Below are positions 1 through 17,358 of a stretch of 32,000 nt of DNA, piece after piece. The position numbers and the translations under genes were made by a program. The DNA lies in NCBI GenBank assembly GCA_963718915.1, contig CAVRAI010000001.1:210001-242000 (forward strand), read 5' to 3'. This stretch comes from an uncultured Chloroflexia bacterium. Its GTDB lineage: Bacteria; Chloroflexota; Ktedonobacteria; Ktedonobacterales; JADMIN01. The notes beneath the pieces are model-generated. The model made no database searches. It saw only the letters and a list, made by a program, of their open reading frames with translations, and was not told the DNA's origin. Within the stretch, counting starts at the first letter, position 1. Each line of letters opens with the position of its first letter.

Positions 1-1422
1 TCGGTGCATGGTTATTTCTTCTGGAAGCACGCCAGTTCTCTCTAAGGCAAACAGTATTTGCAAGAAACCGGTATAATGATCCTTTCGCATATCGGCATAA
101 ATGTAAGGACGCAACTTAGCAGGGATAGACCTGCACGCCTTTACCATGACACCAATCACGGGCTTACCTAAGTCCAATGCCGTCGTATATTCTTCTTGAA
201 CGGCTTCAGAACGCATAGAATCAGGGGAAATGAAGACAGCGAGCGCTGAACACTGTTGGATAGCGGTTCGGATCTCCTGTTTCCACCGCTTCCCAGCCAA
301 TAGCCGACTACGATCAACCCATGGCTGCAAACCGTTCTCCCGGATTCCCCTTTCAGCGTCATCGACGACTTGTGGGTTACTGCGTGCATAGCTCAGGAAG
401 ATAAGTGGCCTGTGTTCACTAGGCTGATCACTTGTTCTGCTCTTCTGGGCGTGTCGGAACGCAACGACAATCCTTGCCGCGATCACTTGCGTGATTTTGC
501 TTAGCGAGCGTCCTGGCTGGAAATTGAATGTTGCTGGGATCATCACCGTCTTCCGTGTCCCATCATCCTCGACTACTGCTAACGAAGATCCGAAGAGATC
601 GGCAACACGAGCGGAGACTCCTTTTTTTAAGGACTTGTAATCGACACTTTCAAGCTCCAAAATCTGGATTGATTGCAGCTTTGCAAATGGATATGACACA
701 ACCCTTCCAGGCTCATTGATCAGAAATCCGTGCGGGGTTAGGACGATTAACGGGCCATATTTTACAACTTGCCAAATCTTTGTACGATAGGCTCTGAAGA
801 ATGAAATAGCAAATATAACTCCGAACACGAGATATACACCCGACTCGTAATAGGCTCGCTGAAATTGGTCAATCACAAATGCGAGAAACGAAATGATCAT
901 TACCAATGCAGCTGCGGTGAACGTTTCACGCGTGACGATGCGATACGAACGCGAGTGACGGCGATAGACCTGCCAATCAGGGGGAGTAAGACCATTCTGG
1001 GCCCGCACCAACACGACATCGGGATCAAACAGTGACGGATCATTAGGCCAGTGACTCAAGCCCTCCATATCAAGCGCAAGCAGCAATTCGCGCCACCCAA
1101 AATCAAACGACCGTGTAAAATCGCTCCACTGCAAGTCTCGAAGCGCATTGGGCAACTCGCGCCTTTTGTAAATAAGTAGCGGAAGAATTGGTCGTTGAGC
1201 CGTTGTAGCAACAGCAATTGCTTTATTTACAAGGGAGACATATTGCTTCTGCTCAGTAATGCCAATGCAGATTGCGGCAAAAGGCGACAGCCGCTGCAAT
1301 TGAGAGTTGTCGCTGACGAGCGAGATGCGTAGGCCCCGCGCAACCAATCCTTCAGCAATTCTTGCACCTAGCGTTTGCTCGGTTGTTGGTAAGCAAACGA
1401 TGATGTGAGGAGCATCAGTCAT
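1..1422 (-). CDS. Multi-domain TIR protein, C-terminus cut by the window edge: degenerate TIR-like domain, two TM helices, PH-like domain, TIR domain
   Basis: Missing from the ORF track because it has no stop inside the window. I checked all 474 in-frame triplets from 1422 down to 1 and found no minus-strand stop. An upstream in-frame stop (tca) lies at 1471-1473. The ATG at 1422-1420 is preceded by GAGGAGGGGG (reverse complement of 1425-1434). C-terminal part: RPLIFLSYARSNPQVVDDAERGIRENGLQPWVDRSRLLAGKRWKQEIRTAIQQCSALAVFISPDSMRSEAVQEEYTTALDLGKPVIGVMV. This fits the bacterial TIR pattern (FxSY, W.D, G..W, ISp.S..S.w..E). N-terminal part (HIIVCLPTTEQ...ICIGITEQ...PILPLLIYKRRELPNALRDLQWSDF) has the same layout but lacks the SY and Glu positions. 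The hydrophobic hairpin is FTAAALVMIISFLAFVI / VYLVFGVIFAISFF. Confidence 0.75.
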   Translation of the reverse strand, partial: MTDAPHIIVCLPTTEQTLGARIAEGLVARGLRISLVSDNSQLQRLSPFAAICIGITEQKQYVSLVNKAIAVATTAQRPILPLLIYKRRELPNALRDLQWSDFTRSFDFGWRELLLALDMEGLSHWPNDPSLFDPDVVLVRAQNGLTPPDWQVYRRHSRSYRIVTRETFTAAALVMIISFLAFVIDQFQRAYYESGVYLVFGVIFAISFFRAYRTKIWQVVKYGPLIVLTPHGFLINEPGRVVSYPFAKLQSIQILELESVDYKSLKKGVSARVADLFGSSLAVVEDDGTRKTVMIPATFNFQPGRSLSKITQVIAARIVVAFRHAQKSRTSDQPSEHRPLIFLSYARSNPQVVDDAERGIRENGLQPWVDRSRLLAGKRWKQEIRTAIQQCSALAVFISPDSMRSEAVQEEYTTALDLGKPVIGVMVKACRSIPAKLRPYIYADMRKDHYTGFLQILFALERTGVLPEEITMHR

Positions 1423-1740
1423 ATCCCCCTCCTCGTAGATATTCAGAGATGAGTGGAGCAGCGCAATACATCATTCTTGCTGCGAAAGAAGAGAGAGTGG
1501 TTATCTACCCCTTCTTCGAATTGTTCATATGCCATCGCATGACGCATGGCTGCGTGACAACGTTATCTACCCATGGTCAGCTTTGTGGCTTTCATCAGAC
1601 GCCTTTTAGCCCAGCACTGCTTCCTTAATATATCATCTCTGGCAATGGCTCCGCGAACTGCATTGCATGAAGTACTCGCTAGCAGAAGGAAGCGAATATG
1701 ATCAGCCCATATATTGGGTGAATTATAGCCCCTCAACTCT

Positions 1741-2517
1741 CTACCGTGTCCAGAAGCCCTGGGGGTCGCACTCGCGGATGATGCGTAGCTCGTCGGCGGT
1801 GGGTGGCGGCGTCTCGTGGGCGTCGGGGGCTACGCGCAAGTCCCAGCCGGTGTTCGCGCGCACCTGCTCCGCGCTGCTGCCGGGATGCCACGAGCGTAGC
1901 TCCATCTCGTGCGTATCGGCGGTGAAGCCGAGCACCGCCAGCGTCGTAATCACCGCTGCTGGGCCGCCACGCGGCAGCCCCACGCGCGCCCGCCAGTCGC
2001 CGCCATCGCCGTAGCCGGGGCTGGTGATGTAGCTGACGTGTTCGGGAAAGCGCTTCTTCTCGTGCGCCAGGATGATCGCCAGCCGCCCCGCCAGCGAGGC
2101 GATATCCGCGCCGCCACCGCTGCCGGGTAGCTTCACCGCCGGATGCGCGCGGTCGCCGATATATGACGTGTTGAGGTTGCCGAAGCGGTCTACCTCGGCG
2201 CCGCCGACGAAGCCCAGGTTGGCGAATCCCTGCGCTAGCAGGCCCATCAGCGCGCCCGTGCGGGTCGCCCACTCAGCCCCGGCGATATTCGGCGCGTCGC
2301 CCATCGTCAGCAGCAACTCGCTGGAAGGCGCGTCGCGCACCAGGCCGTTCTCGAAGAGGCCGATGGCGCTCGGCGCGTGGGTGCGCTTGGCCAGCGCGAA
2401 CGCCAGCAGCGGCAGCCGCATCCCTACGAAGACGACCTCGCCATTGTGAATCTCGCGGGCGGCGCAGACCACCATCAGCTCCTGCGGCGTATAGTCAGGC
2501 GTCATACTCTGCGACAT
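1741..2517 (-). CDS. CoA-transferase subunit B (glutaconate / 3-oxoacid CoA-transferase beta family)
   Basis: 258-aa ORF containing EVDRFGNLNTSYIGD and KLPGSGGGADIASLA, typical of family I CoA-transferase beta subunits. It lies directly downstream of the subunit A gene on the same strand. Confidence 0.9.
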   Translation of the reverse strand: MSQSMTPDYTPQELMVVCAAREIHNGEVVFVGMRLPLLAFALAKRTHAPSAIGLFENGLVRDAPSSELLLTMGDAPNIAGAEWATRTGALMGLLAQGFANLGFVGGAEVDRFGNLNTSYIGDRAHPAVKLPGSGGGADIASLAGRLAIILAHEKKRFPEHVSYITSPGYGDGGDWRARVGLPRGGPAAVITTLAVLGFTADTHEMELRSWHPGSSAEQVRANTGWDLRVAPDAHETPPPTADELRIIRECDPQGFWTR

Positions 2518-2609: not shown

Positions 2610-3527
2610 CTACACCCCGTAATCCACCGGAGCGGCCAGCAGCGGCGTGCGGATCGCCAGCGCCTGCCAGCGTTCAGCCCCCAGCCGCTCCAGATAGGCG
2701 GCGCGGTCGGCCACGTCGAGCACCTGCTCTCGCAGCCATGAGGCGAAGCCCTCAGGCGTGCGGCTGCGCTCGTGATACTCGGCGAAGTAGGCGTGGTCGC
2801 GATTGTAGTAGCCCTGCACCGGCGAGGGATGAGCGCCGCCGGGCGCATGGACGACCGCAAGCGTCTTCTCGCCGGGAGCCAGCACGCGGTTGGGGTCGCT
2901 CAAAATGACCTCGGCCGGGACGATCTCTTCGGCGGTATAGATGACGCCGTGGGACGCCAGCGCCGCCTCCTCGCAGATGCCCAGGCTCCCCCAGGCATGC
3001 GCGCGCCCGGCAGCATCCGCCCGCTGCACGTGGATGATCGCCACGTCGGGCCGTAGCGCCGGAACCAGCAGCGTCGGCGCGCCATCCAGCGGCGAATCGT
3101 GCGGGCGCATCGTCGGATGGTCGCGGGCGATATCGCTGCCCAGCAGTGACCGTATCGGGATGTAGGGGACGCCGAGCGCGCCCGCCAGCAGCGCCATCGC
3201 GATGCTGTAGTTGCTGTGATCCTCGACGGTGATGGGGTGTGGCAGACCCTTCTCGGTGGCTCGGCGGTAGTTGTAGCCCAGTCCCTCGCTGACATTGCCT
3301 ACCCAGGCGGCGGTGACCTTCGTGACGCAGCCCGCGCCGAGCAGCTCATCGAAGAGGATATCGGAGATGGGGCCGATGAGCGTCAGATCGCGCCGCTGCT
3401 GGCGGATGATCTCGTGTCCGGCGGCGAAGGGGATCAGTGGCTCCAGCGCCAACCCCATCGCCACGCTGCTGCCGTCGGGCACGAACCGCTCGATGGCTTC
3501 CCGCATCGTCATCAGCTTATCGCTCAT
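2610..3527 (-). CDS. CoA-transferase subunit A (family I, GctA-like)
   Basis: 305-aa ORF (MREAIERFVPDGSSVAMG..., GVPYIPIRSLLGSDI, DVAIIHVQRADAAG) resembling CoA-transferase alpha subunits. It is paired with the subunit B gene. Confidence 0.9.
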   Translation of the reverse strand: MSDKLMTMREAIERFVPDGSSVAMGLALEPLIPFAAGHEIIRQQRRDLTLIGPISDILFDELLGAGCVTKVTAAWVGNVSEGLGYNYRRATEKGLPHPITVEDHSNYSIAMALLAGALGVPYIPIRSLLGSDIARDHPTMRPHDSPLDGAPTLLVPALRPDVAIIHVQRADAAGRAHAWGSLGICEEAALASHGVIYTAEEIVPAEVILSDPNRVLAPGEKTLAVVHAPGGAHPSPVQGYYNRDHAYFAEYHERSRTPEGFASWLREQVLDVADRAAYLERLGAERWQALAIRTPLLAAPVDYGV

Positions 3528-4467
3528 CGTCCGTCTCGTCCCTTCGCCGCTGTAAGTGCCGATGCAACAATTCCCAGCGCATCTGGGGATCGCCGTGTCG
3601 TATCAGGTCGTTGGTGAGCTGCGGCCCCGTCATCCACTGCTCCAGCAGGCCGCAGACGCAAAATCCCAGGCGCTCATAGAGATGCTGCCCCTCTGGTGTA
3701 GCCGTGAGTGTGGCGCAGGTGAAGCCCGCCACCTGGGCCTCGCGGAGCGCCAGCAGCAGCAGATTGCCCGCGATGCCGCGCCGCCGAGCATCGTGCATGG
3801 TCGCCACGTGATAGACGCCGATAGACTCGCCCAATGGCAGCGTCGCGACGGTGGCAACGGCCTGATGCCTCCAGTGCGCCAAATAGAGCGTGAACGCCGG
3901 ATTCTCGCTCGTCCAGCGCGACATTGGGAACGGCGGCGCGTCGAAGACCCGGCTGATGATATGCAGCGCGTCGGCCTGGTCGCCGTCCGAGGCGGTTCGA
4001 CGATAGCTGACTCCCGGCGGCGCCTGTGGATAGCTGACGTCCCACTCCCGCAGGTCAAGGTACATCATCGTCGCGCCGCCCCAGGAACGCATGCCGACAT
4101 CATAGAGGTGCTCGCGCAGGCCTGTGGGCGCGTCGTCGTAGGTGAGCCACCACTGGAACGGCAGCCCGTAGTAGCGAAATGGCTCGATGGCCTCTTCAAT
4201 CGCGTCGGCGGTGGCTGGCTCAGGCGAGCGATAGCGCATCACGATGTTCATCAGCGTCTCGGCGACGCCCGGCGTCAGCACCCGGAGCATGGTGGGCGTA
4301 TCGTCAACCAGCGCATATGGCTGGGAGGTAAGCGATCCCAGCGATGCCCAGGCGGCGCACCAGTTCGCCTCGACGGCGCGCGCCATCCGCAGCCGCCGCA
4401 CGTCAGGCTCGTCGTCATCGGTCGCGTCGTAGTTTCGCGGTGGCTGGGCCATCTCCGAGTGGTTCAT
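3517..4467 (-). CDS. GNAT family N-acetyltransferase
   Basis: 316-aa ORF with an acetyl-CoA binding motif (RRRGIAGNLLLLALREAQVAGF...LYERLGF). The RBS GGGAGG lies upstream of the ATG at 4467. Its 3' end overlaps the CoA-transferase A start by 11 nt. Confidence 0.75.
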   Translation of the reverse strand: MNHSEMAQPPRNYDATDDDEPDVRRLRMARAVEANWCAAWASLGSLTSQPYALVDDTPTMLRVLTPGVAETLMNIVMRYRSPEPATADAIEEAIEPFRYYGLPFQWWLTYDDAPTGLREHLYDVGMRSWGGATMMYLDLREWDVSYPQAPPGVSYRRTASDGDQADALHIISRVFDAPPFPMSRWTSENPAFTLYLAHWRHQAVATVATLPLGESIGVYHVATMHDARRRGIAGNLLLLALREAQVAGFTCATLTATPEGQHLYERLGFCVCGLLEQWMTGPQLTNDLIRHGDPQMRWELLHRHLQRRRDETDDER

Positions 4468-4552
4468 CCCTGTAAAACCTCCCGCCGCTACTGTCAGTAT
4501 CTAGTCCAAGTGTAGCACGCCATCGCCAGAGCTAGAGTCCGGGTTGGTGGGT

Positions 4553-5143
4553 CTATGATTGATTACGCCGCCTGAATTGTCTTCTGGTCTTCGAATGCTT
4601 TGGCTCTGCTCGAAACTGAACCTCATGGTAGTTGCGTATGAGACGTACCAATTCCTCTGCTCGAAGCGAGAGGGTTCCCAAATTGATGTCAAGTTCAATC
4701 GGCTGTTGATCTACATCTGTGAGGGCGTCGCGAGGTTTGAGCATGAATGAGAGCGTGAGAAAGGTAGCGCGCGTAAACAGACTGGTGTCTCTTTTCGCCG
4801 CAAAGGCAGAGATGAGGGCAACATCGGCCCAATAGATGGTGCGAGTGGGGAGTGGAAAAGGGTGGTAAACCAGCCGGGATTCGCTCAATTGCAACATCGG
4901 AATCGGCGTAACAGTCCAGTACAGGCCAAACAATACGAAAACCGCGCAAATCAGCAATACAACGATGAACAGTATTGTTTTGGTAGGCTCCTGATACTCC
5001 CACGGCGTGGCTGTGATAACTGGCGTGGGCCAGGCGAAATAAGCGAGCAGGTCGATTACTACCCCGCCAGCGAAGAGTATCGCCGCCAGAAATGGCTTCC
5101 ATCGTGTGGCATATAAGTTAACCGTTGGTGAAACAATGGCCAT
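4553..5143 (-). CDS. Small membrane protein: two TM helices followed by a PH-like soluble domain
   Basis: I place the start at the internal ATG 5143 (MAIVSPTVNLY...). The longer 5368 start would overlap the divergent HD gene. TM segments are FLAAILFAGGVVIDLLAYF and ILFIVVLLICAVFVLFGLYW. They are followed by PMLQLSESRLVYHPFPLPTRTIYWADVALIS..., the TM-TM-PH layout of bacterial PH (YdbS/STM3941-like) proteins. Low-GC patch (29/60 G+C in 4561-4620). Confidence 0.6.
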   Translation of the reverse strand: MAIVSPTVNLYATRWKPFLAAILFAGGVVIDLLAYFAWPTPVITATPWEYQEPTKTILFIVVLLICAVFVLFGLYWTVTPIPMLQLSESRLVYHPFPLPTRTIYWADVALISAFAAKRDTSLFTRATFLTLSFMLKPRDALTDVDQQPIELDINLGTLSLRAEELVRLIRNYHEVQFRAEPKHSKTRRQFRRRNQS

Positions 5144-6730: not shown

Positions 6731-6752
6731 CGGCGAATCGAGGGAGTCATAC

Positions 6753-7838
6753 ATGGGAGCCCGTGCAAACTACGTTCTCATCGAAGATGGCGCAATTTCG
6801 ATCTACTATTCCCACTGGGGCGCGATGAGCGTTCCCGCAGTTGTCATTGATGGCCCCGACGCGACGATTGCATACATCCGGGAACTGGGGCCTGACGCTG
6901 TATTGATGGAGGATAACTGGGCGGAAGGTGGAATCCTGCTTGACGTCGACCGACGCGCGTTGCTCTTTTTCGGTGGCGAGAACATCATGTTCTCTCCTCC
7001 CTGGCAGCGGATATTCCTCCGCATGATGCGATTTGTCTGGCAGGGCTGGTCTGTTGCATGGGCAGGACGCGAAATTTTCGATATCGCATCGTATCCTGGT
7101 GTTGCGGATTCCCTTGAAATCAATCCTTCCAGTCTTATCATGTCCGTTGAACCTGAAACCTATCAACCATATTCTGAGGCGAAGATCCGTAATCCGCACG
7201 AAAATCCGTGGGTTTATACCGTCATCACCGTCACCTGGGAAGATGGGCGAGTCAGTGACTATACCTTCGATTCCGCGCTCGACGGTTATCTGCTGTTTGG
7301 ACCAAACCTGCTCGATGACTTGCGCGAGCGCGAACCCGATGAGCTGCCATGTGAAGAAAGCAGTGGGGAGATAATTTACTTCGATGCCCCAGACCAGGGC
7401 CTACGTGAGGGCGCATATATCGATACGGGCGCGCGAGCAATGTGGATCATGCACGACAAACCGGTGTATTCCGTAAAGCCGGAACGCATCGCGCAGATAT
7501 GGCCTGGTTGGAGTGTGAACGAACACTTTGAGGGTCTTGGCCGCCAGGTTGTGCTGTCTGGCCGTAATCCGTCCCTAGTTGCCGCTCCTTATGAACAGGT
7601 GGCACTCGAATTGATCGGCGATTTGATGACAGGCCATAGGGACGATAACGACTCAGTTTCGCGTTTGATCGCACAGGCGTTGGCCGACCGACCGACTGAG
7701 CAATCAACGCAGGATAACGAAATCGCGTATCCCACGCCTTTGCCTCCTCTTCTCCCAGCAGCAGAGCGACGCGCCCATCTCATTGCCCTGCTCCAGCAGG
7801 CGTTGCAGGATGACGCAGAAGCTAGAGCCAACAAGTGA
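6753..7838 (+). CDS. Hypothetical protein (361 aa), no family recognised
   Basis: The ATG at 6753 is preceded by GAGGGAG (6740-6746) and lies 22 nt after the HD gene stop. The long ORF is in a lower-GC patch (26/60 G+C in 7081-7140). The track start at 6663 would overlap the HD gene. Confidence 0.65.
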   Translation: MGARANYVLIEDGAISIYYSHWGAMSVPAVVIDGPDATIAYIRELGPDAVLMEDNWAEGGILLDVDRRALLFFGGENIMFSPPWQRIFLRMMRFVWQGWSVAWAGREIFDIASYPGVADSLEINPSSLIMSVEPETYQPYSEAKIRNPHENPWVYTVITVTWEDGRVSDYTFDSALDGYLLFGPNLLDDLREREPDELPCEESSGEIIYFDAPDQGLREGAYIDTGARAMWIMHDKPVYSVKPERIAQIWPGWSVNEHFEGLGRQVVLSGRNPSLVAAPYEQVALELIGDLMTGHRDDNDSVSRLIAQALADRPTEQSTQDNEIAYPTPLPPLLPAAERRAHLIALLQQALQDDAEARANK

Positions 7839-7993
7839 GAAGTATGAAGCGCCTCACAAATTCTCGCATTGCAGAGTGAGAACTCAGAAACTCCGCCCGT
7901 ATATTCTGTGGAAGGCTACCAGCCGATGGTGAATCTACTCGCCCCGGCTAGCTGTGTCGCTGGAGCGGATATGAGCGCGAGGGAGAGTGCGCT

Positions 7994-8197
7994 ATGGCTA
8001 AATCCCGAAGGAAACGAAGCGCGCTAAGGGCGCTGGTGGTGGCGCTGCTCTTCATCGCCGTCACCGTGGCGCTGATCGTCTTCATCCCCCGCGCCATCGA
8101 CTCCTCACATGCCACGCAGATACCCACGCCGGGACAGGTGATTCTGCCGCCGACCGCCCCAGCGGCGACCGCAGTGGCGACGGCCACGAACAAGTAA
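7994..8197 (+). CDS. Small single-pass membrane protein (67 aa)
   Basis: The ATG is preceded by GAGGGAGAG. The N-terminus is basic (KSRRKRSALR) and is followed by the TM segment ALVVALLFIAVTVALIVFI. Confidence 0.45.
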   Translation: MAKSRRKRSALRALVVALLFIAVTVALIVFIPRAIDSSHATQIPTPGQVILPPTAPAATAVATATNK

Positions 8198-8213
8198 CGA
8201 GGAGGCGGAGACG

Positions 8214-9092
8214 ATGAATCAACGGTATCGCACGCAACGCTCTCCTCGAACATGGGTAGGTGGCATCGTCGGCGGACTGATGCTTGCTTGCCGCGCTCGC
8301 GCTGCTGGCCGCGTGCGGCGGCTATAGCTCGCCATCAGCCATCTATACGCCGCATCCCGGAGGCACGGCCATTCCACGGCCGGTACCGGGCCAGCGGCCT
8401 ACGCCTATCTCTACTCGCGGATTGATTATCCATTGCAGTTGGCGGTCAACGCGGGAGGCGACGTCACACTGACCCTCTCGCCGCAGCAGAATCTGCTGAT
8501 CGCGACGCCGGGCGCGGGTTCGGGCGTGGGCACGGTGGGCGAGCCGATTCCGCTGCCGACGCGGCTGAACGATTATAACGACATCGGCGCCTCGGTCGAT
8601 ACGGAGTCGTCAGGCAACAGCCCCGTCGTCTGGCAGCTTGTCAGCGCGCCGCGCCAGTCGCTGCTCTCGCCGGGCGGTCCAGGCACAGACCGCGCGTATC
8701 TGGATGCTGTGCACTTCACCTGGCATGTGGAGGCCGTCGCGCCGGGACAGAATCTGGTGCGCATCATTCTCCATCTCTACTACATTTATCTTGACGGCAG
8801 CGAGCATGATGGCACGATCGAGGTCTCGTCGTTGCCGACGCCAATCGTCGCGGTTCAGTCCACCATCGCCAATACGACGCTGCCCACCTGGCTCCCGTCG
8901 TGGCTAACTGACCAACTCACCACATGGCGGATACCGCTAGCGGGCTTGAGCGGGCTGGCGGGCCTGCTGGGTGTGATACGTTTCCTGTGGGATATGTTCC
9001 AGAATGCGCGGGACGCCAGAGAAGCGGCGCAGGGCGCGGCCAAAGCGGCGGTGGCGATCCGCACGCGCGTCAACCAGCGACGGCAACGATAA
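8214..9092 (+). pseudogene. Lipoprotein-like / C-terminally anchored protein interrupted by two compensating frameshifts (or two sequencing errors)
   Basis: The ATG at 8214 (RBS GGAGGCGGAG) gives MNQRYRTQRSPRTWVGGIVGGLM and then stops at 8325-8327. The +1 frame from 8284 reads LLAALALLAACGGYSSPSAIYTPHPGGTAIPRPVPG, a lipobox LLAAC, with G/C-rich third codon positions. From about 8391 the G/C-rich third positions return to the original frame (PAAYAYLYSRIDYPLQLAVNAGGDVTLTLSP...), which runs to 9092 and ends with a TM helix (LAGLSGLAGLLGVIRFLW). Confidence 0.45.
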
Positions 9093-11354: not shown

Positions 11355-12563
11355 ATGCGGCTGGTTGAGCGACACGTCATCAAGCGGATTGACCGGCGCT
11401 TCAACGCGATTGACCGCGCGGCCTTCGCCTCGAAAAACCTGTACAACAAGGCGCTCTACGCCTCCCGGCAGGCGTTCTTCCAGGACGGCTCGTTCCCAAG
11501 CTACCTCGCGCTCTATCGTCAGATGAAGAGCGAGCCGGAGTATGCGGCCTTGCCCCGCAAGGTCGCCCAATGGGTGCTCAAGCAGGTGTGCGCGGCCTGG
11601 GACAGCTACCGTGAGGCGCTCAGAACCTGGGAGACGGATCCCTCGCAGTTCTTGAATCAGCCACGCATCCCCCGCTACAAGCACAAGGAGCAGGGGCGCA
11701 ACCTGTTGGTCTACACCACTCAGGCGCTGAGTCGCCCTGCGTTACGCAACCAGGTGATTTGTCCTTCGATGCTGGACATCACTGTCCAGACTCAGCAGTC
11801 TAATATCCAGCAAGTGCGCATCATTCCACGTAGCGGCTTCTACGTGGTTGAAGTTGTCTATGCGCGAGAACCTACCCCGGCAGCCGTCAATCCCACATTG
11901 CATGCTGGCGTAGACATTGGATTGAACAATCTGGCCATGCTAACTTCAGACAAGCCGGGCTTTGTCCCGCGCGTCGTCAACGGGCGACCAGTGAAGTCCA
12001 TCAACCAGTTCTACAACAAGCGACGCGCGGCGTTACAAAGCCAGTTAGGGGGCGTGGGTACCAGCCGACGCTTGGAGTGCATCACGACGAAACGCACGCG
12101 CCGCATAGAGTGGTACCTGCACACCGCCTCACACCGCCTCATCGAGTTGCTGGTGACGGAGGGGATTGGAACCCTCTGCATCGGTAAGAATCCCGGTTGG
12201 AAACAGGGAGCAACTATGGGCCGACGGGGTAACCAGAACTTCGTGAGCATCCCCCATGCGCGCTTCGTCGCGATGCTGGCCTATAAAGCCGAGCTGGTGG
12301 GCATCCAGGTGTGCATCACGGAGGAGAGCTACACCAGCAAAGCGAGTTTTCTCGATGCGGACCTCCTGCCAGTCTATGGCACGGCGAATGTCTCGGTTTT
12401 CAGTGGGCGGCGTGTCAAACGTGGGTTGTATCGCGCAGCGGATGGGCGGCACATCAACGCGGATGTGAACGGCTCCTACAACATCATTCGCAAAGTAGCT
12501 CCTAATGCCTTCGCGCAAGGGAGTAGAGGGTGCGTAGTTCACCCTATACGGCTCGCCGTATAA
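11355..12563 (+). CDS. tnpB: IS200/IS605-family TnpB (OrfB) RNA-guided endonuclease homologue, zinc-ribbon-less subtype
   Basis: 402 aa. RuvC-I is HAGVDIGLNNLAMLT. The C-terminal part is ITEESYTSKASFLD...RVKRGLYRAADGRHINADVNGSYNIIRK (RuvC-III NADVNG). The middle part, LCIGKNPGWKQG...GNQNFVSIPHARFVAMLAYKAELVGIQV, is typical of the TnpB branch common in cyanobacteria and Chloroflexi. No tnpA gene is adjacent. Confidence 0.9.
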   Translation: MRLVERHVIKRIDRRFNAIDRAAFASKNLYNKALYASRQAFFQDGSFPSYLALYRQMKSEPEYAALPRKVAQWVLKQVCAAWDSYREALRTWETDPSQFLNQPRIPRYKHKEQGRNLLVYTTQALSRPALRNQVICPSMLDITVQTQQSNIQQVRIIPRSGFYVVEVVYAREPTPAAVNPTLHAGVDIGLNNLAMLTSDKPGFVPRVVNGRPVKSINQFYNKRRAALQSQLGGVGTSRRLECITTKRTRRIEWYLHTASHRLIELLVTEGIGTLCIGKNPGWKQGATMGRRGNQNFVSIPHARFVAMLAYKAELVGIQVCITEESYTSKASFLDADLLPVYGTANVSVFSGRRVKRGLYRAADGRHINADVNGSYNIIRKVAPNAFAQGSRGCVVHPIRLAV

Positions 12564-12590
12564 ACTGGGTCTATGGTTGTCCATAGGTCA
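11355..12590 (+). mobile_element. Solo-tnpB insertion sequence (IS1341-like); minimal extent only, true left and right ends not determined
   Basis: Contains tnpB plus a hairpin, ctatgg-ttgt-ccatag (12571-12586), 8 nt after the stop. No second copy is in the window to define the ends. No Y1 (HUH) or serine TnpA ORF lies in the 409 bp upstream. Confidence 0.4.
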
Positions 12591-12635
12591 GGAACTATAC
12601 TGTCAGCAGATACAATCTGGCGAGGAGCAATTCAG

Positions 12636-13346
12636 ATGGCAGCATTGGGCATCGGCAAGATCGTCGGTTCGGAATCACATGTGCGCTACACTTGCCAGAT
12701 ATTCGGCCCCGGCGAGGTCGCTACGCCGCCGGATCCCTCCGCGCACGCTTTTGGCGGCTTCGTCCGCCTGCCACTGCGGACGGCGCTGGCCGCTCCGGAT
12801 ATCGCCGCGCTCGAACCGCGCCCAACCGCCGCGATACGTAGCGACGCGCTGGTACCCGCGCCAGCGCAGCCGCTCTGGGCGGTGGGCTTCATCTACGACA
12901 CGATACTGGTCAATCCCGCCTTTGGCACGCTGGGGCCGCGTCTCTCCAACGACGAGCAGCTTACCCTCTTCTCGCCGGACTACCTGGCGGAGCGCGCCGT
13001 CCTTGTCTCGATCCTGGTGCTGGGCACGATGAGCGGTGAGGGCGCGCCAGCGGGTAGAGTGACGCATGGGGTGCCCGCGCTTGCGCCTGATCTGGGCGCG
13101 GTGGTCGAGCCGCTCACCGAGACGCAGCTGCGCGCCTTTCACACGTTTGCCGATACGTCGCAGTCGCGTCCGTACCTGCACCTAGGCTACCTGCCCCATA
13201 CCGTCGCGCAGAACCACCCGCTGCTGCCGCTGGCAATGTTGCGGACGGTCGAGCGGCTGGAGGCGCTGCTTCCGGAGAACGCCTCGTTGCTGGCAATCGT
13301 CAAGCGCAATCTGGCCTGGCGGCTCAAAGTGCTGGCGGCAGGGTAG
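12636..13346 (+). CDS. Hypothetical protein; N-terminal two thirds resemble a stand-alone HAS-barrel (HerA N-terminal-like) domain
   Basis: The ATG at 12636 is preceded by GAGGAG (12622-12627). MAALGIGKIVGSESHVRYTCQIF..FGGFVRLPL...LWAVGFIYDTILVNP...RAVLVSILVLGTMSGEG...GVPALAPDLGAVVEPLTETQLRAFH follows the strand pattern of HerA N-terminal barrels (iGxVvg...f.f, G.fV.i, a.v.vlG, P.pG..V....el). This is an inference, not a verified match. The gene ends 41 nt before the HerA-like gene. Confidence 0.55.
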   Translation: MAALGIGKIVGSESHVRYTCQIFGPGEVATPPDPSAHAFGGFVRLPLRTALAAPDIAALEPRPTAAIRSDALVPAPAQPLWAVGFIYDTILVNPAFGTLGPRLSNDEQLTLFSPDYLAERAVLVSILVLGTMSGEGAPAGRVTHGVPALAPDLGAVVEPLTETQLRAFHTFADTSQSRPYLHLGYLPHTVAQNHPLLPLAMLRTVERLEALLPENASLLAIVKRNLAWRLKVLAAG

Positions 13347-13387: not shown

Positions 13388-15145
13388 ATGAGTGGCGCGC
13401 AATCACCCCAAACATCCCGCCCGGTTGGCATCACCAAAGGCCCCGGCGAAGCAATCCACGAATACACGCTGATCTCACGCGATGAACAGCGGCTGCTCAA
13501 AAACGGCGAATACGTCTATTACGAACTGGATGAGACCGCCAGCGGCTCGCCTGGCGCAACGGGCGCAAATGGCGCGCATGCCGCCACGCCGCGCCGCGTG
13601 CTGGGACGCATCCTGCGACGGGCGCCGGTGCAGCCTTTCCCCGACACCTTCCTCTCGGAACCTGAGGTATCGCCCTCCCAGGTTGCCGCGCTCGTCGGCT
13701 ATGATATGCGCGCCAGCGATCTCTTCGAGCTTCACGTCGGCATCATGGGCTATTACGATGAGACGTTAGGCTCCTTCGTCAACCCCTGGATTCCGCCCAG
13801 CTCCGGCACGCCCATCTATCTGGCCGAGGACGCCTGGCTCGCCACCGTGCTCTCGCGCAAGCAGGGCGGTCAGGTTGGCAGCGCCATCGTCGGCTCGCTG
13901 CTGACACGCCCGCCAACCGCCGTGCCGGTGGTGCTGGATGTCAAAGAACTGGTAAGCACTCACCTCGCCATCATCGCCAGCACCGGCGCGGGCAAGAGCT
14001 ATCTGGCCAGCGTTATCATCGAGGAGATGATGCGCCCCTACAACCGCGCCGCCGTCCTCATCATCGATCCCCACGGCGAATACAACACCTTGCAGGAGAT
14101 CGCGAACGACGAGGAGTTCCGTGCCCCGGAGCCAGCCAGCCCCGCGACGCGGCGCCAGCCACGCTATGAGGCGCGCACGCGCGTCTATCTGCACGACCAG
14201 GTGAAGGTGCGCATGAACACGCTGACGCTCGGCGACCTGCGCTACCTGCTGCCCAACATGACCGACAAGCAGCACCACTTCCTCAGCCGGGCGTTCGAGG
14301 CGCTACGGGCCGAGAAGAAGGGGCAGCCATGGGGCGCTGCCGACCTCAAGCGCCATGTGAGCAACGTCGGCAAGTCCGCGAACGAGGATAGCGGCGACGA
14401 TAGCGGCAACAGCACCATCGCCGCGCTGCACTGGAAGATCGACGAGCGGCTGGGCGACAACACGATGGTCTTCGACCAGTTCCAGCATCTCAATCTGAGC
14501 GAGGTGCTCCAGCCGGGGCAATGCACCGTCCTCCAGCTCAATGAGATCGACGAGCGCGACCAGCAGGTGATCGTCGCCACGCTGCTCCGACGTATCAACC
14601 AGGCGCGGATGGACACCGAGAAGGGCAAGGTACAGGCGAGCGACGAGCGCTTTCTGCCGTATCCCGTCTTCATCCTGCTGGAGGAGGCGCACCACTTCGC
14701 GCCGCATGACGGCGAGGCGATCACGACGGGCATTCTCAAGCAGGTGCTGGCCGAGGGACGCAAGTTTGGCATCGGCGTCGGGCTGATTAGCCAGCGTCCC
14801 GGCAAGCTGGACGCTGACGTGCTGAGCCAGTGCCTGACGCAGTGCATCATGCGCATCGTCAACGAGGTGGATCAGAAGAGCGTCGCCAGCGCCGTCGAAG
14901 GCGTGGGGCATGATCTACTACAGAACCTGCCTGCCCTCTCGAAGGGGCAAGCCATCATCGCGGGCAGCGCCATCAATACGCCAGTCATCTGCCGCGTGCG
15001 CGAGCGGATTACGCCGCACGGTGGCGAGAGCAAAGACGCCCCAGCGGAGTGGCAGGCGCATTTCGGCGTGGATGCAGTGGCGGGGCGCGCCCGCGATGAG
15101 GCGCTCCCCCGGCGCAACAATCGCCCATTCAACATCATGAAATAG
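13388..15145 (+). CDS. HerA-like / DUF87 hexameric ATPase (FtsK-HerA superfamily)
   Basis: 585 aa. N-terminal barrel region (GITKGPGEAIHEYTLIS..NGEYVYYELDE..VLGRILRRAPV). Walker A is HLAIIASTGAGKSYLASV and Walker B is VFILLEEAHHFAP. GIGVGLISQRPGKLDADVLSQC is also present, and the end is GQAIIAGSAINTPVICRVRERITPHGG, typical of HerA/COG0433. Confidence 0.85.
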   Translation: MSGAQSPQTSRPVGITKGPGEAIHEYTLISRDEQRLLKNGEYVYYELDETASGSPGATGANGAHAATPRRVLGRILRRAPVQPFPDTFLSEPEVSPSQVAALVGYDMRASDLFELHVGIMGYYDETLGSFVNPWIPPSSGTPIYLAEDAWLATVLSRKQGGQVGSAIVGSLLTRPPTAVPVVLDVKELVSTHLAIIASTGAGKSYLASVIIEEMMRPYNRAAVLIIDPHGEYNTLQEIANDEEFRAPEPASPATRRQPRYEARTRVYLHDQVKVRMNTLTLGDLRYLLPNMTDKQHHFLSRAFEALRAEKKGQPWGAADLKRHVSNVGKSANEDSGDDSGNSTIAALHWKIDERLGDNTMVFDQFQHLNLSEVLQPGQCTVLQLNEIDERDQQVIVATLLRRINQARMDTEKGKVQASDERFLPYPVFILLEEAHHFAPHDGEAITTGILKQVLAEGRKFGIGVGLISQRPGKLDADVLSQCLTQCIMRIVNEVDQKSVASAVEGVGHDLLQNLPALSKGQAIIAGSAINTPVICRVRERITPHGGESKDAPAEWQAHFGVDAVAGRARDEALPRRNNRPFNIMK

Positions 15146-16760: not shown

Positions 16761-16815
16761 CACGAGGCAACCACGAGGCAACCACGAGGCAACCACGAGG
16801 CAACCACGAGGCAAC
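16761..16815. repeat. Tandem repeat (cacgaggcaac) x5
   Basis: Five perfect 11-bp units at 16761-16815, in the divergent intergenic region between the 68-aa ORF (minus) and the cupin gene (plus). Confidence 0.9.
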
Positions 16816-16920
16816 GGGGAAATTCCTGAGTGGCTCGTCCGTCCTGGAAAACGATGTATCGCTCTCTATGAAGCATAGCAGGGAGAATCAATGCGAACGA
16901 GCGGAATGGTAGGCCTACGG

Positions 16921-16947
16921 ATGCATGCGATGCATGCGATGCATGCG
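16921..16947. repeat. Tandem repeat (atgcatgcg) x3
   Basis: Three perfect 9-bp units at 16921-16947, 30 bp upstream of the cupin GTG start. Each unit is alternating purine-pyrimidine and contains overlapping ATGCAT and GCATGC palindromes. Confidence 0.9.
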
Positions 16948-16977
16948 ATACGATAAGGACTCTGAAAGGAGGGTGAC

Positions 16978-17358
16978 GTGCGACTCTACAGCTTTGGCGC
17001 GGCGCGTGGGCGACCGATTACTGAGTTTGGCAGCGTGCGCGTGACGATCAACGGCATTGTCTACGTGCTGGAGGGCGACGTACAAGTCGGGTGTATGCGT
17101 CTCGCGCCGGGCGGACGTGTGGGCGCGCATCAGGCGACGACACGCCAGCTCTTTCTGGTGATGTCTGGCGAGGGATGGGTGCGCGGGCCAGAATCCGAGC
17201 GCACGCCCATTACAACCGGTCAGGCGGCCTTCTGGGAGACCGACGAGGAACACGAGTCGGGCAGCAAAACAGGCATGGTGGCGCTGGTGATCGAAGGCGA
17301 TTCACTTGACCCCGACCAGTTCCTCCATCTGCTCAGTGACCATAACAATCGAGAATGA
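16978..17358 (+). CDS. Cupin domain protein
   Basis: 126 aa. The GTG start follows AAGGAGGGTGAC. LAPGGRVGAHQATTRQLFLVMSGEGWV...AAFWETDEEHESG fits the two cupin motifs. Confidence 0.75.
   Translation: MRLYSFGAARGRPITEFGSVRVTINGIVYVLEGDVQVGCMRLAPGGRVGAHQATTRQLFLVMSGEGWVRGPESERTPITTGQAAFWETDEEHESGSKTGMVALVIEGDSLDPDQFLHLLSDHNNRE

Follow-up and report, generated by a model that had tools for sequence, protein, structure and literature searches.

What kind of protein is encoded by a gene that carries TIR domains and membrane helices and leaves its stretch of DNA at the very first nucleotide? The question is raised by positions 1 to 1,740 of a 32,000-nucleotide sequence from an uncultured Ktedonobacterales bacterium (assembly GCA_963718915.1, contig CAVRAI010000001.1, positions 210,001 to 242,000), which is called the window below. 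An earlier reading of the letters (the original prediction) had proposed that this region hides an edge-truncated gene for a membrane-embedded protein with a TIR-like domain, two transmembrane (TM) helices, a PH-like module and a C-terminal TIR. TIR domains are a common enzymatic currency of bacterial, plant and animal immunity, and the systems that use them differ in how self-association is controlled. We found that the gene is complete, that its product is a full tandem duplication, and that it lies on a single-gene mobile cassette.

The gene is intact and encodes a two-fold repeat

Translation of the minus strand of the window gave 474 stop-free codons, from 1422 to 1, starting with an ATG at 1422-1420. 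The features of this region are the following:

1..1422, minus strand: TIR gene, codons 1-474 of 634 (translation; 100% identity to the recorded protein P0001)
1425..1434, minus strand: ribosome binding site (RBS), GAGGAGGGGG, 2 nt 5' of the ATG (sequence)
1048..1422, minus strand: degenerate TIR, copy 1, amino acids (aa) 1-125 (sub-threshold TIR_2 match, hhalign, secondary structure of the AlphaFold2 model)
931..1047, minus strand: juxtamembrane linker 1, VVLxRAQNGLTPPDWQVYR, aa 126-164 (conservation, alignment to linker 2)
778..930, minus strand: TM1-TM2 hairpin, aa 165-215 (hydropathy, AlphaFold2)
433..777, minus strand: probable PH-like module 1, a predicted beta-sandwich, aa 216-330 (AlphaFold2, Foldseek, hhalign to module 2)
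25..417, minus strand: TIR, copy 2, probably catalytic, aa 336-466 (Pfam, PADLOC, PDB profile search, Foldseek)
190..192, minus strand: codon of Glu411, the putative catalytic Glu (invariance, alignment to known TIRs)

The gene is missing from the list of open reading frames (ORFs) because the frame leaves the window: no listed ORF of at least 40 aa covers 1422..1. The GAGGAG core of the RBS was kept upstream of the homologues in the alignment of the upstream regions. Protein P0001, recorded from a 509,910-bp NCBI contig and from an independent read-set assembly (L001), is 634 aa long and 100% identical across all 474 window residues. The whole gene lies on L001 at 337-2241, which places the stop codon about 482 nt to the left of window position 1, and the frame is therefore intact past the window edge. 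The hidden gene of the original prediction, with its open frame, its RBS and ATG and its absence from the ORF list, was thus reproduced, and the continuity of the frame beyond the window, left there for checking, was established with no disruption.

The layout proposed for the protein was incomplete. The 160 aa that lie outside the window supply a second pair of hydrophobic helices, which brings the TM helices to four, and a second beta-rich module. The protein consists of a degenerate TIR, a linker, two TM helices and a probable PH-like module, followed by a second TIR, linker, pair of TM helices and probable PH-like module. A BLASTP comparison of aa 1-331 with aa 332-634 gave an E value of 2e-4, and hhalign aligned the family profiles of the two halves end to end (probability 97.8%, E 9.4e-13, 277 columns). 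The single parts matched their counterparts as well: E 2.4e-5 over 116 columns for TIR against TIR, 5e-9 for beta module against beta module, and 1.3e-10 for TM plus beta module against TM plus beta module, with probabilities of 0.1-0.2% for mismatched cross-controls. The agreement of these comparisons identifies the protein as a full duplication. The two-fold repeat was reproduced in an AlphaFold2 model built from the 7-sequence family alignment (pLDDT 69, pTM 0.61).

Copy 2 keeps the putative catalytic glutamate and copy 1 is degenerate

The TIR of copy 2 matched Pfam TIR_2 (PF13676) at aa 341-453 with 85.7 bits (E 4.7e-24), the gathering threshold being 28 bits, and was also above the cut-off of Pfam ThsB_TIR (29.8 vs 21.2 bits). 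In PADLOC, the best matches were the TIR parts of the TIR-SAVED and pAgo-associated TIR models, classes of effectors that deplete NAD, rather than ThsB. Bacterial TIRs, Cat1, SARM1 and AbTir were among the matches of a PDB search with the family profile of copy 2, and a Foldseek search with the whole-protein model matched SARM1, SPARTA and a B. cereus TIR.

Glu411 is the second E of SEAVQEEY and does not vary among the 7 family sequences. It aligns with the Glu of SARM1 'HKEIVTAL', of AbTir-type 'WTEYEL' and of Cat1 'WCWDEL', residues that we take, from published work, to be the catalytic ones. Copy 2 carries the alpha-C-helix Glu of catalytic TIR NADases, at the position of SARM1 E642. Both the C-terminal TIR and the location of its putative catalytic Glu in SEAVQEEY had been read correctly from the letters.

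The N-terminal domain showed a beta-alpha-beta layout in the secondary structure of the AlphaFold2 model. It scored 16.6-17.2 bits with TIR_2, below the cut-off of 28; sub-threshold TIR_2 matches were obtained in this domain for 6 of the 7 family members (best 1.5e-4), and the SPARTA TIR was its best PDB profile match. Its homology to the TIR of copy 2 was shown only by the profile-profile comparison. TIR was thus recovered by profiles at the C-terminal end, as had been expected for both ends; at the N-terminal end the Pfam threshold was missed and recovery succeeded by profile-profile comparison. Judged by its sequence, the N-terminal domain is a degenerate TIR paralogue and, by threshold, not a member of Pfam TIR_2.

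In copy 1, VCLP replaces FLSYA, Ala68 occupies the column of the catalytic Glu, no Glu occurs in residues 64-69, and a family-wide deletion has removed the 11 residues that match the BB-loop region of copy 2. The absence of the SY and Glu positions, on which the description of this domain as degenerate had been based, was therefore found again. Most relatives have, in copy 1, a Glu two positions before the Ala68 column, which the SPARTA alignment puts on the catalytic position; this suggests that the loss of the Glu in copy 1 may be specific to P0001.

Conserved linkers, TM hairpins and probable PH-like modules

Linker 1 consists of a helix and a short beta hairpin and is the best-conserved segment of the protein (aa identity 0.74-0.77). 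It aligns with linker 2 (YVLARGxxxxPLPDEQVF), and the two juxtamembrane linkers are the most conserved parts of the protein, whereas the TM helices are the least conserved (aa identity 0.27-0.57). Two stretches of peak hydropathy (aa 166-186 and 194-212), flanked by segments rich in K/R, coincide with the first of the two long-helix hairpins of the AlphaFold2 model (165-187/194-215 and 504-523/528-552), in agreement with the TM hairpin proposed earlier. The presence of four TM helices and the K/R-rich flanks of the hairpins would place all soluble domains of this inner-membrane protein in the cytoplasm.

In the AlphaFold2 model, each beta module has 6-7 strands and, after them, a long helix (307-327 in module 1). 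When the isolated module was compared with the PDB by Foldseek, the top 50 matches were nearly all of the PH superfold, the best having an E value of 7e-3 and none reaching 1e-3; they included the PH domains of Rtt106/Pob3/SSRP1, the PTB domains of CCM2 and ICAP1, FERM F3 and the PH domains of GRK2 and BTK. Besides TIRs, the search with the whole protein also matched the PH domains of Rtt106, Sin1 and GRK2. Neither the module nor any of 11 module copies matched Pfam bPH_1-6 at E<=10, a profile search with the module found no solved PHb structure, no Pfam family matched the middle 187 residues, and the viral structure library gave nothing meaningful for the TM/PH module. The only sequence link was a recurrent sub-threshold match of the middle region to NCBIfam STM3941_fam. 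Of the PH-like module that had been predicted, the fold was therefore recovered by Foldseek and the Pfam bPH sequence match was not; at the level of the fold, the beta modules are probably PH-like.

The arrangement resembles that of known membrane proteins. Proteins of the DUF304, DUF1200 and DUF2244 families have two TM helices and an intracellular PH-like domain, and PHb domains form rings (PMC2817789); YdbS has 2 TM helices and one PHb2 domain, and YdbT has 6 TM helices and three PHb2 domains (PMC8657885). P0001 would share with these families (YdbS/YdbT, DUF304/bPH_2, DUF1200 and DUF2244) the unit of two TM helices and an intracellular PH-like module, the beta-sandwich with a C-terminal helix cap is also predicted for its modules, and, as in YdbT, the unit is repeated in one polypeptide. 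The likeness to YdbS and YdbT is one of architecture and not of sequence membership, since P0001 differs from the membrane PHb proteins in having no Pfam bPH or solved-PHb profile match. Unlike P0001, those families have not been described with TIR domains.

The protein family is small and under purifying selection

Queried with the TM/beta module, an exhaustive phmmer scan of 1.84 billion cluster representatives returned five proteins (50% clusters), all of the same family and all from Ktedonobacterales or metagenomes. The family is confined to Ktedonobacterales metagenome-assembled genomes (MAGs) and soil metagenomes. A word-indexed search with the whole protein against 5.8 billion proteins returned four relatives with 41-62% identity and otherwise unrelated TIR proteins. 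The named members are recorded as 'TIR domain-containing protein [Ktedonobacterales bacterium]'. The architecture is shared by every full-length member (601-644 aa), and the homologues, 611-644 aa in length, have a common C-terminal motif.

The ratio of nonsynonymous to synonymous substitution rates (dN/dS, Nei-Gojobori) was 0.15-0.45 in every segment of the protein and 0.17-0.24 in the degenerate TIR; synonymous sites were saturated between P0001 and the 61% homologue. Copy 1 is under purifying selection and is constrained as strongly as copy 2. Purifying selection in every segment argues that the gene is not decaying.

The gene lies on a mobile cassette in a strain-variable hotspot

A foreign composition had been claimed for the region, and the counts of G+C (27/60 and 25/60 in 1-120, 46/60 in 1801-1860) were exact when repeated. 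The G+C content of third codon positions is 0.50 in the TIR gene vs 0.65-0.88 in the adjoining genes. The accessory status of the gene was strengthened by synteny, for which 80 syntenic loci were gathered with the CoA-transferase B gene as anchor. Two further features define the right side of the cassette:

1423..1740, minus strand: low-GC upstream spacer, 318 nt, part of the cassette (local alignment)
1741..2517, minus strand: gene for CoA-transferase subunit B, right border (Pfam CoA_trans; end of synteny)

The closest MAGs are 94-97% identical in CoA-transferase B, and the lineage is one of uncultured Ktedonobacterales. The stop codon of CoA-transferase B is the exact point at which nucleotide synteny with the relatives (88-90%) ends, and the TIR protein is absent from 80/80 syntenic Ktedonobacterales/Chloroflexota loci. 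On the left side, 103 nt past the stop were read directly on L001, and the left neighbor was deduced from synteny with one relative, L019. In this locus the counterpart of the 86 nt available past the TIR gene is reached only about 390 nt downstream of CoA-transferase B. These 86 nt contain the end of a convergent gene for a DUF433 (antitoxin-like) protein, 34 nt past the TIR stop (L001 2242-2344, approximately window -483 to -585). In L019 (10775-11424) the DUF433 gene and an overlapping DUF5615/PIN-like partner are both intact, whereas here the cassette junction leaves only MNFMRTY* of the DUF5615 gene. The cassette, approximately 2.25 kb of low-GC DNA comprising spacer and gene and replacing approximately 375 nt, has thus overwritten all but the first codons of the PIN-like toxin gene.

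Directly after the CoA-transferase B stop, the low-GC cargo differs among close relatives:

L016 6488-8348 and L025 2885-4713: Schlafen-AlbA_2/HATPase_c_4 protein
L019: DUF433-DUF5615 toxin-antitoxin pair
L018: MazG protein
L033: HEAT-repeat protein
L020/L052 and L021: unknown proteins
L017: nothing

The site is therefore a strain-variable hotspot, at which presence varies among relatives at a conserved position and composition is atypical, and in this soil Ktedonobacterales genome the TIR gene occupies it as a single-gene, horizontally mobile foreign cassette. Behind the cargo of L016 and L025 the 3' end of the CoA-transferase gene appears a second time, as a 120-nt or 63-nt duplicate, which suggests site-specific insertion. 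A direct-repeat or att duplication flanking the TIR cassette was also considered and was rejected, the available flanks sharing no 8-mers.

Part of the spacer appears to belong to the gene. A block of approximately 93 nt (window ~1442-1533, -112 to -20 from the ATG) is common to P0001 and to P0011, the 61% homologue, with a local alignment score of 36 vs 18 +/- 2 (maximum 26) for shuffled sequences. This block is probably a promoter or leader. Its conservation despite saturated synonymous sites indicates that the gene moves with its own control region. A scan of the upstream region for sigma-70 promoter and terminator consensus sequences stayed at background level, with nothing convincing, and no Rfam RNA family was found in the gene regions or upstream spacers. 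The spacer carries a 1-nt indel between the two assemblies, with GGGGAGATAACC at ~255-262 of L001 vs GGGGTAGATAACC at ~1497-1504 of the window; the protein is unchanged.

A proposed membrane-anchored TIR effector

We consider P0001 to be a stand-alone, membrane-anchored TIR effector that would cleave NAD+ in an abortive-infection or conflict type of response, and we give this reading a probability of about 0.5. The role in defense is inferred from context, and the protein is not a demonstrated member of Thoeris, CBASS or any other named system.

The mechanism that we propose starts from the membrane. The TM-hairpin/PH-like modules would hold the protein there and would mediate or gate its self-association, a role suggested by the rings that bacterial PH domains are known to form. 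Characterized TIR NADases are active only when TIR domains pack together; because of this dependence on TIR-TIR packing, the dead TIR is proposed to act within the protein as a partner of the live one or as a brake on it. Some stimulus acting at the membrane or in the cytoplasm (phage infection or perturbation of the envelope, for example) would cause the protein to assemble into higher-order structures, and these would hydrolyze or cyclize NAD+.

Several observations weigh against this assignment. The Trp of the WxxxE motif is replaced by Ala in P0001, and by Tyr or Asn in its relatives, so that the TIR activity could be weak or altered. No recognized defense gene flanks the window copy: its neighbors on the right are metabolic and the left one is the end of the DUF433 gene. 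The 61-62% homologues lie on contigs of at most 5 kb, where their neighbors are GNAT, methyltransferase and unknown proteins. Finally, the Ktedonobacterales combine huge TIR/STAND expansions with multicellular development, and the confinement of the family to such an order makes a role other than phage defense possible.

Homologue loci and comparison with known systems

The original prediction had placed any partner genes to the left of the window. This was not borne out: the left neighbor is the convergent DUF433 gene, and no partner gene is conserved across the homologue loci that were compared. There is likewise no TIR partner among the right-hand neighbors in the window. The 41% homologue, which is found on 48-56-kb contigs (L002), lies in a TIR-dense island together with a TIR-NB-ARC-WD40 STAND protein, a 1325-aa Clp_N-TIR protein, a weak HerA-like ATPase and a large serine recombinase. 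The TIR gene upstream of the homologue differs between two nearly identical loci, L002 and L006, and the two upstream genes are not orthologous. What recurs at these loci is therefore the flavor of a conflict island and not a conserved system of two genes.

Two genes of the L002 island are of interest in themselves. A 269-aa protein of two TIR domains is encoded immediately upstream of the 41% homologue (L002 8945-9754, plus strand), and a 163-aa ThsB-like TIR with a C-terminal hydrophobic helix, LIGILLLALCIGVAYYV, is encoded at 16761-17252 (plus strand). Tandem and membrane-tethered TIRs thus recur in this island. A small upstream TIR partner, of the kind seen in L002 and L006, was considered for the present gene and rejected, since no remnant of one occurs here and those two genes are not orthologous.

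Among known systems, copy 2 is closest in sequence and fold to the TIR NADase effectors (TIR-SAVED/Cap-type, SPARTA TIR-APAZ, AbTir and SARM1), with which it shares the catalytic-Glu column. These effectors need TIR-TIR assembly, a requirement that would explain a built-in second TIR. Unlike them, P0001 has no SAVED, STING, APAZ, SAM/ARM or other known sensor domain, has no cyclase or Argonaute partner gene at its own or the homologue loci, has the WxxxE Trp replaced, and carries its live TIR between two TM-hairpin/PH-like modules with a dead paralogous TIR in cis. Membership of the CBASS, Pycsar and type III CRISPR TIR effectors was not indicated, with no fused sensor and no cyclase nearby; PADLOC SAVED_TIR matched over the TIR part only (profile positions 4-94 of 404). 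The same is true of SPARTA and the short pAgo systems: PADLOC Aga_TIR matched the TIR only, and no Argonaute was found in the window or on L001.

The similarity to Thoeris lies in a TIR above the ThsB_TIR cut-off and in one homologue that adjoins TIR genes; such neighbors are absent from the closer homologues. Unlike Thoeris, P0001 has no adjacent gene for a SLOG, Macro or other signal-binding effector: upstream lie the 318-nt spacer and the CoA-transferase, downstream the convergent DUF433 gene, and the homologues have no common partner. The Cap15/S-2TM-beta effectors of nucleotide-signaling defense combine a TM hairpin with a small cytoplasmic beta domain, and P0001 would resemble them in this combination and in its conflict-type context. 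It differs from them in giving no PADLOC match outside the TIR, in the absence of these effectors from the top structural matches and in the poor conservation of its TM helices.

A systematic survey of TIR systems sets aside stand-alone TIR proteins (bioRxiv 10.64898/2025.12.03.692087). No description of the architecture of P0001 was found in PADLOC, Pfam, this survey or full-text literature searches, and searches of the literature on TIR with bPH/TM architecture, on Ktedonobacter TIR proteins and on STM3941 returned nothing relevant. The building blocks, TIR effectors and membrane-anchored PH-like units, are both of known kinds. The protein would represent an undescribed solution to the control of TIR self-association, in which a dead TIR paralogue is fused in cis to a live TIR and repeated TM-hairpin/PH-like units attach both to the membrane; one mobile gene carries the whole. 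Should the protein prove active, it could serve as a compact model of how a membrane gates TIR activation and of how pseudo-enzyme TIRs regulate from within, and bacterial PH-like domains would gain a defined role. The CoA-transferase hotspot offers a ready place to look for accessory and defense genes in the poorly explored Ktedonobacterales. The weight of these points is limited by the great diversity of TIR fusions in the phylum, the tiny size of the family, the softness of the PH assignment and the indirect nature of the functional one.

Alternative explanations

The protein might have a non-immune role, as a membrane scaffold or an NAD-linked regulator in the filamentous, sporulating Ktedonobacterales (programmed cell death, kin conflict or development). 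Islands that combine many TIR genes with STAND NTPases, of which L002 is an example, have been discussed as systems for conflict or for an apoptosis-like process in multicellular bacteria, and both the metabolic neighbors of the window copy and the limitation of the family to Ktedonobacterales MAGs and soil metagenomes are in agreement with such a role. We nevertheless regard it as unlikely: the gene is patchy and strain-specific, being absent from all 80 syntenic loci, including those whose flanking gene is 94-97% identical, its composition is foreign, and the toxin-antitoxin and Schlafen-like cargo of the hotspot is typical of accessory or defense genes and not of a developmental core.

A bolder form of the effector reading, which we hold to be rather doubtful, makes the protein an immune sensor-effector of an undescribed kind, contained in one polypeptide and embedded in the membrane. 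The pair of dead and live TIRs would be held inactive by the two TM-hairpin/PH-like modules, until perturbation of the membrane or envelope by a phage, or binding of an ADP-ribose (ADPR) product to the PH-like modules, rearranged the hairpins and brought about NAD+ cleavage and/or permeabilization of the membrane.

A Thoeris-like system working in cis appears doubtful indeed. In such a system the live TIR would make an ADPR-derived signal (a cyclic ADPR isomer, His-ADPR or similar), the PH-like modules would bind it, and the TM hairpins would open or cluster and damage the membrane. The ThsB_TIR cut-off is passed, the hairpin with its small beta domain recalls the Cap15/S-2TM-beta effectors, and any effector function must be in cis, there being no separate effector gene. 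TM-containing effectors that respond to TIR signals have also been reported (bioRxiv 10.64898/2025.12.03.692087). Against these points, PADLOC found similarity in the TIR part only and none to Cap15, SLATT or other TM effectors, Cap15-type barrels were not among the top 50 structural matches, and the TM helices, as the least conserved part of the protein, are more in keeping with an anchor than with a precise pore. A diffusible signal made and sensed by one polypeptide would, moreover, bring no obvious advantage.

The two remaining explanations are poorly supported. Replacement of the DUF5615 PIN-like toxin by the TIR protein, in a new pair with DUF433, is suggested by the junction, which truncates DUF5615 and leaves DUF433 beside the TIR gene, and by the intact pair of L019; it is most improbable, because the DUF433 and TIR genes are convergent and not co-transcribed, no DUF433 neighbor occurs at the homologue loci compared, and the TIR gene brings its own conserved upstream region. 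A decaying, non-functional passenger gene, as the foreign composition, the degenerate TIR copy and the lost WxxxE Trp might suggest, is equally improbable and largely refuted by the selection on all segments, including the degenerate TIR, by a 634-codon frame that is intact and identical in two assemblies, by a length and architecture kept at 41-62% identity, and by the conserved RBS and upstream block.

Other genes of the window

To the right of the spacer, the genes for CoA-transferase subunits B and A are followed by genes for a GNAT protein and an HD-domain protein and by a pseudouridine-5'-phosphate glycosidase-type gene; farther to the right lie TnpB, a HerA-type ATPase pair, a sigma factor and glycogen-debranching genes. 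The TnpB-type gene (11355-12563, plus strand) encodes OrfB_IS605 and Cas12f1-like TNB domains. Directly after it, at 12573-13346 (plus strand), a 257-aa protein with no Pfam match is encoded, and then, at 13388-15145 (plus strand), a 585-aa HerA/DUF87 ATPase (PADLOC HerA, E 1e-46). The 257-aa protein and the ATPase may form a two-gene module of HerA and a partner, NurA-HerA-like or of a defense type.

Two patches of low G+C content (0.51-0.53) were observed at 4501-5000 and 7001-7500. The ORFs in low-GC patches, 4695-5102, 6747-7199 and 7948-8253 (all minus strand), gave no Pfam or PADLOC match, and the patches with their small ORFs may be further foreign insertions. Two ORFs on opposite strands overlap almost completely, 3517-4467 (minus strand) and 3556-4515 (plus strand): the former, a GNAT acetyltransferase, is likely the real gene, and the latter is probably a shadow ORF of high G+C content.

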